Assembly: GCA_032718475.1 (NCBI GenBank)
Contig: JAUCBJ010001856.1
Span: 1-64,000 of the forward strand
From: Nemertoderma westbladi
Lineage: Eukaryota > Animalia > Xenacoelomorpha
Reading direction: 5' to 3'
Length of the DNA stretch: 64,000 bases
Position 1 is the stretch's first letter. Each line of letters begins with the position of its first letter. Positions 3,246 to 63,374 of the stretch are shown here, piece by piece. The position numbers and the translations under genes are program-made. A model generated the notes under the pieces. The model ran no database searches. It saw only the letters and a program-made list of their open reading frames with translations, and was not told the DNA's origin.

Positions 3246-6200
3246 GTATGTTTGTCAGTCGTTTGATATTATTTAATATATTAATATTATAACTAGTTAA
3301 GAAGAGGGGGCAAGGCCAGGGGGCTTTTGCTTGACGCAATCGAAATGGAATCTTCTGAGACGAGTAGAAATTTCAAAAACTTAACAGTAACCCATGCTAT
3401 AGACTTTTGTTTATTGTTTTGGTAAGAATAATGTGCCATTGTAACCTGCTCCTTTCCCCTACATTGTTCATTCGCTGAACCGAGATATTAATTCACCGAA
3501 TTCAGATATGCGTCTTGTTTCCCCACCCCTGTCTCATTTCATCACATGACAACTATCGGTGCCTTGAATTAAATAGTTCTAATTTACTAATATCCCAACA
3601 GATTTTCGATTTTGATTACATTGTCTCTAACAATTTCTTCAATCTTCCAAGTTATTAATATTGAGTTAAATCCGTAACTTTTTATTATTGGACTGGACCA
3701 AGGTTATTGGTGATTGAGTTCTTTCCTATTTAGGGCGTACAGTACCTACTTACTGTCCGACACTGAGACTATCTTGTCACACAATGCATGTTATGAGAGT
3801 GGCCATGGCTATTTGGTTTGTTAATTTGCTTAGGGTTAGTTGGCCAGACCTCATCCATAATTAAAACTGCCATATAATCCTAATCCTAAGTTATAATCTT
3901 AGAAACCCAGCTTTAGATTTCTTAGATTATGACTTGTTCCTAAGATTACATGACAGTTTTAATAAAGGTTGAGGTCGGCCCTCCTCTAAGTAACGTTCAC
4001 CCCAAACATATTTGTTATTGTGGTCCTGATACGTTTACCATCATTAACAGGCGTGAATATATTGATCTCATTGAGACGTTGAACGTGGCTGTTTACGAAA
4101 GATACTGTTGTAACTGGTTGAGGAAGTTCTGAAACTATGCCGGCCATGTCTCGTCCCCGTATCGTCGATATTTTGTATATTTTATTTATTCATTAAAATG
4201 AGTTCTGTTTCCTGCTCAGGCTTGGGAGATTTCCAGTGGAAAACCTCTTTTCAAAGCTATAGTGTGGTTGGATACCCGAACAAAGGGAATCGTGGACAGG
4301 CTGATAGAAGGAAACCCCGGCAAGGATAAAGACTGTCTCAGGCCTAAATGTGGTCTACCGATAAGTACATACTTTAGCGCCTTGAAGATCAGGTTTGTGT
4401 AACTGCAATGAGTCCTAAATATGCGCCAATTACCCAACCAAATAAAATATATTTAATGTTTAAACGGTTTCCTACTTTTCGGGATCGGGATTTCCATTCT
4501 CGGGATTCCGATTTTCAGGATCGGGATTGCAATTTATAATTAAATTTCCTTGTGAATTTTTCAGTATATGTGAATGTGACCGTGTAGGCCCTTTTATTGT
4601 ATGAAACGGGTTTTGGGCAAAGCTCACTTTATTTTATACTTATAAAATATTTGTAAGAATAAATTATATTAAAATGAATTTGTAATTTATTACTGGATGG
4701 CTTATATGGACATTAAACGTTATAATCGTTGTAATTAATACATTTCTTTTCTATGGCAACTATTTATCGGATATGCAACCAATTTACTTTGCTATTTATA
4801 CTTGGACCCTGGTCACAAAAAGTTTTTATAGAGACCGGGATTAGATTTTTTGCTGGGATCCGGTTTTTTGGGATCGGGATCCCGTTTTTTGGGATCGGGA
4901 TTCCTTTTACACTAAATACACAATATCAATAAGGATGTAATCTTTAGCTGTTACTAATTTGTAATGTACTTTAAGAAACTACTAATTTACTGTTTGATTT
5001 CTGGTTTGTATTTCAGATGGCTCATGGAAAACGTTAAAGAAGTTGGAGCCGCGATCGAAAGAAACGATTGTTTGGTTGGAACTATCGACTCGTGGCTCGT
5101 ATACAAACTAACTGGGGTCCATGCCACAGGTGATTAGAACAAACTGGCCGTATTGGTATTGTATGGGCGGTCCAATAAGGCCATGTTTACACTTTTTACT
5201 AAGTGCGTTGTGGAAGTTGGGCAATGCTACTACCAACTACGTAGAAAGCGTAGTATGTCGAGCGAACTCCGACAGATTCCGGCCTAAGTGATATACGTTT
5301 CAGATGTAACCAACGCCAGTCGCACTATGTTTATTGTGTTTCAGATGTAACCAACGCCAGTCGCACTATGTTTATTGTGTTTCAGATGTAACCAACGTCA
5401 GTCGCACTATGTTTATTGTGTTTCAGATGTAACCAACGCCAGTCCCACTATGTTTATTTACTCATTCAGATGTAACCAACGCCAGTCGCACTATGTTTAT
5501 TGTGTTTCAGATGTAACCAACGTCAGTCGCACTATGTTTATTGTGTTTCAGATGTAACCAACGTCAGTCGCACTATGTTTATTGTGTTTCAGATGTAACC
5601 AACGCCAGTCGCCCTATGTTTATTGTGTTTCAGATGTAACCAACGCCAGTCGCACTATGTTTATTGTGTTTCAGATGTAACCAACGCCAGTCGCACTATG
5701 TTTATTGTGTTTCAGATGTAACCAACGCCAGTCGCACTATGTTTATTGTGTTTCAGATGTAACCAACGCCAGTCGCACTATGTTTATTGTGTTTCAGATG
5801 TAACCAACGCCAGTCGCACTATGTTTATTGTGTTTCAGATGTAACCAACGTCAGTCGCACTATGTTTATTGTGTTTCAGATGTAACCAACGCCAGTCCCA
5901 CTATGTTTATTTACTCATTCAGATGTAACCAACGCCAGTCGCACTATGTTTATTGTGTTTCAGATGTAACCAACGTCAGTCGCACTATGTTTATTGTGTT
6001 TCAGATGTAACCAACGTCAGTCGCACTATGTTTATTGTGTTTCAGATGTAACCAACGCCAGTCGCCCTATGTTTATTGTGTTTCAGATGTAACCAACGCC
6101 AGTCGCACTATGTTTATTGTGTTTCAGATGTAACCAACGCCAGTCGCACTATGTTTATTGTGTTTCAGATGTAACCAACGCCATTCGCACTATGTTTATT

Positions 6201-63374: not shown

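Follow-up and report, generated by a model that had tools for sequence, protein, structure and literature searches.

Splice-junction minisatellites in two neighbouring genes of Nemertoderma westbladi: very large arrays of a known class

Three unrelated tandem arrays in a 64,000-nucleotide stretch of the genome of Nemertoderma westbladi have repeat units that straddle exon–intron boundaries, and in a short-intron animal they have lengthened their introns by as much as 24 kb. They belong to a class already known from amphioxus, the 'mirage' minisatellites, and are distinctive mainly by size. We consider it probable that each arose by ordinary tandem duplication, was tolerated through choice of the proximal splice site, and was amplified by unequal exchange. 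The stretch analysed, referred to here as the window, comprises positions 1-64,000 of the forward strand of contig JAUCBJ010001856.1 (assembly GCA_032718475.1). A sequence-only reading of it had picked out the three arrays and their splice-site-spanning units, and TRF recovers all of them (41 bp × 587.9, 44 bp × 20.0 and 55 bp × 185.9). Its estimate that they affect 3 of 30 splice sites and occupy about 35 kb of the 64 kb is also borne out, the counted total being 35,408 bp.

The host genes

Both host genes are on the forward strand:

2964..35395, + strand: glycerol kinase (GK) gene, nine coding exons (from the open frame, GT-AG introns, homology, FGGY_C and a spliced contig)
GK exons: 2964-3245, 4220-4392, 5017-5129, 29386-29519, 29741-29858, 30819-31027, 33868-34093, 34326-34471, 35279-35395
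48408..63374, + strand: ShK gene, eight exons, seven ShK-type repeats (from the open frame, Pfam ShK and joins in run X4)
ShK gene exons: 48408-48435, 50025-50198, 50531-50659, 50851-51003, 51122-51250, 51416-51544, 52657-52782, 63253-63374

When the GK gene is rebuilt, its frame runs for 505 amino acids and a stop codon, with no internal stops and with GT-AG at all eight introns. The product shares 60% identity with Lingula GK across 508 alignment columns, its alignment with zebrafish GK is free of gaps at the exon 3/4 and exon 6/7 junctions themselves, and a profile scan gave a Pfam match to FGGY_C; for exon 1, the best matches reach at most 58% among the 120 matches listed. Exons 4-6 are covered by one spliced contig, the loose ends of which reach exons 3 and 7. 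GK exons 5-9, five in a row, begin with GT after an exon that ends in AG (a proto-splice-site pattern).

The ShK gene product has 329 amino acids, all seven introns of the gene are GT-AG and in phase 1, and Pfam ShK was matched in each of the four exons scanned; to judge from its hydrophobic N-terminus, the protein is likely to be secreted. Its seven repeats are arranged one per phase-1 exon. X4 contains very deep contigs of this gene, reaching 25,000, and X1, X2, X4 and X6 all have paralogs.

With arrays reduced to one unit, the median intron of these genes, which have 30 splice sites between them, is 332 nt. The array-bearing introns, once about 0.1-0.2 kb long, have grown to 10-24 kb, in agreement with the earlier suggestion that such arrays provide a route to very large introns filled with decoy sites.

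Structure of the junction-spanning arrays

The arrays and the sequences adjoining or within them are as follows:

5130..5296, + strand: start of GK intron 3, unique 167 bp, adjoining the 41-bp array
5297..29416, + strand: 41-bp acceptor array, 587.9 copies, 97% matches (TRF); present in X1 and X2
8159..13909, + strand: about 140 consecutive 41-bp units without differences, ~5.75 kb (sequence comparison)
30992..31870, + strand: 44-bp donor array, 20.0 copies (TRF); present in X1 and X2
52738..63146, + strand: 55-bp donor array, 185.9 copies (TRF); present in X2

The 41-bp unit straddles the acceptor of GK exon 4 (29386) and consists of 15 intron nucleotides and the first 26 nucleotides of the exon. 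YAG is kept by 557 copies, and 529 of them, the real one counted, match the real acceptor exactly from -15 to +3, leaving 528 identical decoys spread over 24 kb; a single acceptor among the 557, that of the last copy, leads into an open frame. At the other end of the array, the unique 167 bp and the first array copy make up a candidate intron of 174 nt, which is unused in the sole spliced contig. A minority family of 43-bp units (14 copies, in two variants) has another pyrimidine-rich intron end that still terminates in AG.

The two remaining arrays are on the donor side. Around the GK exon-6 donor (31027), the last 36 nucleotides of the exon and 8 intron nucleotides form the 44-bp unit, in which GT is kept by 19 copies, all identical from -3 to +6, and lost from the last copy; a full frame is opened by one of these 19 donors. 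The 55-bp unit spans the ShK exon-7 donor (52782), with the last 45 nucleotides of the exon and 10 of the intron, and includes junction variants of 60 and 62 bp. GT is kept in 183 of its copies, two of which give a full ORF, the second of these donors (52842) being in frame and open too, with an addition of 20 amino acids. The earlier remark that the exon-proximal copy gives the correct frame needs one correction, for this second ShK donor. The GK and ShK frames are indeed intact with one copy of each unit, as had been supposed, but exact multiplication of a flanking segment does not describe the arrays: for the 41-mer, eight intron bases find no match in the left flank, and for the 44-mer, one base at the junction differs from the right flank. 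Microhomology is clear at only one of the three junctions, that of ShK, where 5-6 bp are shared between exon and intron.

All units carry intron bases (15 in the 41-mer, 8 in the 44-mer and 10 in the 55-mer), which argues for duplication of genomic DNA and against copies derived from spliced mRNA. To this extent the sequence-only reading stands; the special mutational process that it also entertained is not supported, and we found no evidence of R-loops, spliceosome-associated breaks, rolling circles or RNA templating in the arrays. Nor does the geometry shared by the three arrays speak for such a process: whenever a unit that includes a single splice site is copied head to tail, the added copies come to lie in the intron, so this likeness is automatic and is not independent evidence. 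We think it very unlikely that the arrays had a transcription- or spliceosome-coupled origin, whether through R-loops, breaks at junctions, pre-mRNA-templated repair or rolling amplification of small circles. Such an origin would suit the presence of arrays on 3 of 30 splice sites in two genes that both appear to be expressed in X4, but the units, besides holding intron bases, end at arbitrary positions rather than at splice sites, an 8-kb intergenic array shares their higher-order structure, the nested blocks of variants (below) are more readily explained by stepwise unequal exchange than by a single rolling-circle event, and no RNA-specific hallmark was found.

Splicing past the decoy sites

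Which of these many sites are used? X4 is catalogued as 'DNA?' and none of the runs is recorded as RNA; we treat X4 as derived from transcripts, GT..AG introns being skipped in its contig. In this contig (1619 nt, depth 362) introns 4 and 5 have been removed at GT..AG, exon 3 is joined to 29386, and 31027 is joined to exon 7, with each unit present once. The exon-proximal GK splice sites are used in mature RNA in this one transcript sample (S3, which may or may not carry the arrays). For ShK, the exon 6-7 join is seen in five X4 contigs and the exon 7-8 join in four, as loose ends; these contigs are short, and their tie to the first donor is weaker than for GK, but they support a single copy in ShK mature RNA as well. 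The authentic sites thus continue to yield normal mRNA, as seen in one contig for GK and with less tight anchoring for ShK. X4 has zero cover on the repeat-junction bins of every array, which we do not count toward the silence of the decoys, since contigs drop rare forms and S3 may lack the arrays. In intron 3, the acceptor 174 nt from the exon-3 donor appears to be skipped, as do more than 500 identical ones beyond it.

Conceivably, decoys might be functional, either by diverting transcripts to decay and so tuning expression or by serving as a ladder for recursive splicing. The match to the real site of 529 of the 557 acceptors and of all 19 GK donors could be read in this way, as could the one alternative ShK donor that is in frame, but homogenisation explains such conservation, and spliced GK RNA is represented by one record of 1619 nt. 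In recursive splicing, a ratchet point is an AG immediately followed by GT, through which a donor is regenerated. What follows the acceptor in the 41-mer is AT instead of GT, and the joining of exon 3 to a decoy acceptor would regenerate no GT and hence give no ratchet point. A functional role seems to us highly improbable.

Presence of the arrays in independent sequencing runs

Six runs from one organism were available, of which five were compared, over two stretches; all consist of contigs, from which rare forms are lost. X2 and X3 are from one sample, and X4 is from S3, a sample other than those of the X1 and X2 DNA runs. The X1 unitig has no differences from the window in 998 nt, whereas that of X2 has 28 in 995 nt (2/252 exonic and 26/743 intronic bases) and represents a different haplotype. 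Since the window may itself derive from X1, the independent support is that of X2. The unique GK unitigs of both runs begin at 29382 and stop at 31021, where 31-mers turn repeated. Summed depth for the 41-mer bin was 37,155 in X1 and 6,917 in X2, against 17 and 18 for single-copy sequence; the corresponding values for the 44-mer bin were 289 against 15 and 1,262 against 23, and the 55-mer reached 7,873 against 48 in X2, none of these values being a copy number. The repeats are at tens to thousands of times single-copy depth in X1 and X2. The ratios of repeat to unique depth are unequal between X1 and X2, but those of X2 and X3 also disagree, and summed contig depth is not copy number; the derivation of copy numbers from it was rejected as unreliable.

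Because the GK arrays are found in two samples of differing haplotype, and the ShK array in one, they are not an invention of the assembly. The arrays are real, and their lengths as assembled are provisional, most clearly for the largest, in which the block of about 140 identical units represents either a recent expansion or inflation by the assembly. It is unlikely that the arrays, though genuine, owe their lengths to assembly or amplification: the identical units over 5.75 kb and the unlike depth ratios of two runs of one sample are what such inflation might give, but short-read contigs of two samples put the repeats far above single-copy depth, and most of each array is made up of diverse, hierarchical variants not expected of an artefact.

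At ShK exon 7 (52540-52860), X1 yielded only paralog-like contigs and none on the 55-bp array, though its GK region is identical to the window. This gap could reflect presence/absence variation or a filtered record, and is not counted as evidence. X6 has a single paralog-like contig at the ShK stretch.

Internal structure and a likely history

The arrays hold 32-36 unit variants in nested blocks, an arrangement expected, we infer, from repeated unequal exchange. The 55-bp array has an exact match of 2182 nt at a lag of 3204, indicating an internal higher-order duplication of 3.2 kb. Interior units are on average 1.1-1.7% from consensus, whereas copies at the edges have differences of their own, 3 of 21 intron bases being unlike in the first and last ShK copies; this is concerted evolution with divergent boundary copies, as in mirages. 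When the exon parts of donor units are compared with the array consensus, all four differences are at synonymous third positions (two fixed or nearly so, two segregating inside the arrays). A fifth differing position, just beyond the exon part of the 41-mer, changes the amino acid, but perhaps was never part of the duplicated segment. To judge from the divergence of edge copies and the synonymous differences, the uniformity of the arrays probably understates their age.

These features can be accommodated in a scheme of three steps. A slip or repair event at the DNA level would have duplicated 41-60 bp, at ShK at the 5-6 bp microhomology. Mature RNA would have retained a single copy, as was seen for GK in one transcript sample and is supported for ShK; nearly every other copy, if used, would shift the frame or bring in an early stop, and the resulting RNAs would likely be lost. 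Unequal crossing-over or conversion would then have lengthened the array and homogenised its interior while edge copies drifted, as the internal structure suggests. This is close to the second alternative of the sequence-only reading, that random duplications survive when splicing hides them, which fits both the data and the literature.

Relation to known systems

Minisatellites over exon–intron boundaries, on both donor and acceptor sides, have been described in amphioxus as mirages (in Adh3, the globin genes BflGb6 and BflGb9, troponin C and PGBD5), and the parts of those reports considered here describe normal splicing, instability of length, and a homogenised interior with divergent edge copies, together with somatic instability at Adh3 (PMC3087553, PMC3902484). 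The likeness extends to boundary-spanning units, arrays on both sides, several arrays per gene region, normal splicing and a homogenised interior. Four mirage features are found in N. westbladi: unit size (41, 44 and 55 bp, against 10-160 bp in the portions of the literature drawn on), unit content (host exon end, splice signal and adjoining intron bases), mRNA from the authentic site, and concerted evolution. The contrast is in scale, BflGb6 mirages having 3 and 6 units in the text cited (PMC3087553, PMC3902484) against about 588 and 186 here.

In the human F7 gene, the first unit of a 37-bp VNTR in intron 7 likewise lies over the exon/intron junction and is followed by identical pseudo-donors; in the portion of the study used here, alleles have 5-9 copies, and mutagenesis showed that splicing is confined to the most upstream donor, even when others lie in frame (Borensztajn et al., 2006; PMC1557585). 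F7 is a donor-only case, whereas up to 183 donors, and an acceptor array as well, are present here. The scanning model proposed for F7 covers donors, but does not explain how an acceptor at 174 nt is passed over for one 24 kb away, and this is a limit of the explanation that we prefer.

A systematic survey of human duplicated genes found internal tandem repeats, also minisatellites at exon–intron boundaries, with 27 intron modifications; in the sections relevant here these average 30 bp × 4 (160 bp) and often give new introns or alternative transcripts, which were not seen with the arrays in N. westbladi (De Grassi & Ciccarelli, 2009; PMC2812944). Gigantic introns of megabase scale, filled with satellites, are reported in the passages cited for Drosophila Y genes (PMC6508621, PMC11207136). 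Here the resemblance is that tandem DNA inflates the introns of working genes. The units of those introns are reportedly simple satellites not derived from splice junctions.

Since amphioxus mirages and the human F7 repeat were already known, the locus reveals no new kind of element. Its value is as an extreme case: with its 183 donors and about 590 acceptors it far exceeds all of the compared cases, which have 3-9 copies (Adh3 copy numbers not being among them). Less well explained than the donors are the acceptors, since a short-intron animal appears to skip one at 174 nt and more than 500 identical others. The locus could serve to test exon definition against first-come acceptor choice.

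Are splice junctions favoured?

Three of the large arrays do sit at junctions, as the sequence-only reading emphasized, but three others, and all five small duplications, miss the annotated splice sites. The three other large arrays, which serve as controls, are:

38064-38676: 24-bp array, 25 copies, intergenic (TRF); off annotated splice sites
38676-46654: 41-bp array, 198 copies, intergenic (TRF); off annotated splice sites
51675-52172: 71-bp array, 7 copies, wholly within ShK intron 6 (TRF); off annotated splice sites

With each array collapsed, 19,459 bp of the window remain, in which there are 30 splice sites, and the null was taken as positions not wholly coding. Among the six arrays with at least seven copies, three span a site against 0.46 expected (P=0.007). 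For 15 TRF arrays (poly-T and microsatellite rows excluded) P=0.045, for 11 events, once the five small duplications (all away from splice sites) are counted in, P=0.035, and within gene bodies only P=0.013 (four arrays) or P=0.089 (ten arrays). Matching for GC gave P=0.010-0.015, and GC bias was rejected as a cause of the in-window excess, the expectation rising only from 0.46 to 0.53-0.60. Across tests, three observed against 0.46-1.1 expected is about a 3- to 6.5-fold excess (P 0.007-0.09) in a window picked post hoc; it was chosen for this look among very many that had been scanned, so the P values do not establish a bias. If that selection is ignored, the excess (3 against 0.46) exceeds pure chance and speaks against our preferred explanation. 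The contrast between large arrays (3/6) and small duplications (0/5) gives Fisher P=0.18.

It is unlikely that exon edges are hotspots at the DNA level, where, in a polymorphic genome, homology between haplotypes drops and inter-allelic repair or crossing-over would tend to slip, seeding or expanding units. X2 does differ from the window at 2/252 exonic as against 26/743 intronic bases, the 4/4 synonymous differences between consensus and in-cis exon would suit the capture of another functional allele, and there is the in-window excess itself (3 against 0.46-0.76). Nevertheless, an intron divergence of 3.5% is only a modest barrier, later change in the exon explains the synonymous differences equally well, and the contrast between large and small events is not significant.

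Taking the rivals together, a true junction hotspot is possible but doubtful. In its boldest form, which we hold to be similarly doubtful, splice junctions in this lineage would be several-fold hotspots, genome-wide, for the birth or runaway growth of arrays, taking introns from about 0.2 kb to tens of kilobases while more than 500 perfect acceptors are ignored, among them one that lies at an ordinary intron distance and is transcribed 24 kb ahead of the real site; in an animal with short introns, the locus would then put strict exon definition to a natural test. In the open-access literature we found neither a genome-wide study of such enrichment nor comparably large arrays. Ordinary duplication, tolerated by proximal splice-site choice, is the explanation that we prefer.

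Other repeats in the window

The 24-bp and 41-bp intergenic arrays abut directly, yet are unrelated. The former has open frames on both strands, which were rejected as a gene (two trivial Pfam matches, with no passing stretches). The 41-bp intergenic array is C-rich, extends for 8 kb, and has higher-order duplications of 1.0 and 1.6 kb. Its right end resembles a DNA-transposon terminus followed by TTAA; no partner end was found in the window, and all 197 of 197 matches to the core motif were inside the array. In GK intron 6, a two-copy duplication of 41 bp (33773-33852) ends about 15 nt upstream of the exon-7 acceptor and does not span it.

MITE-like elements with terminal inverted repeats are present at 32338-33532 (27-nt arms), 36943-37893 (49 nt) and 47457-47587 (26 nt). 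Fragments resembling decayed non-LTR retrotransposons were recognized by eye and from ORFs at 700-1510, 30341-30383 and 48700-49611, and the piece at 30341-30383 is of very high copy in four of four runs.
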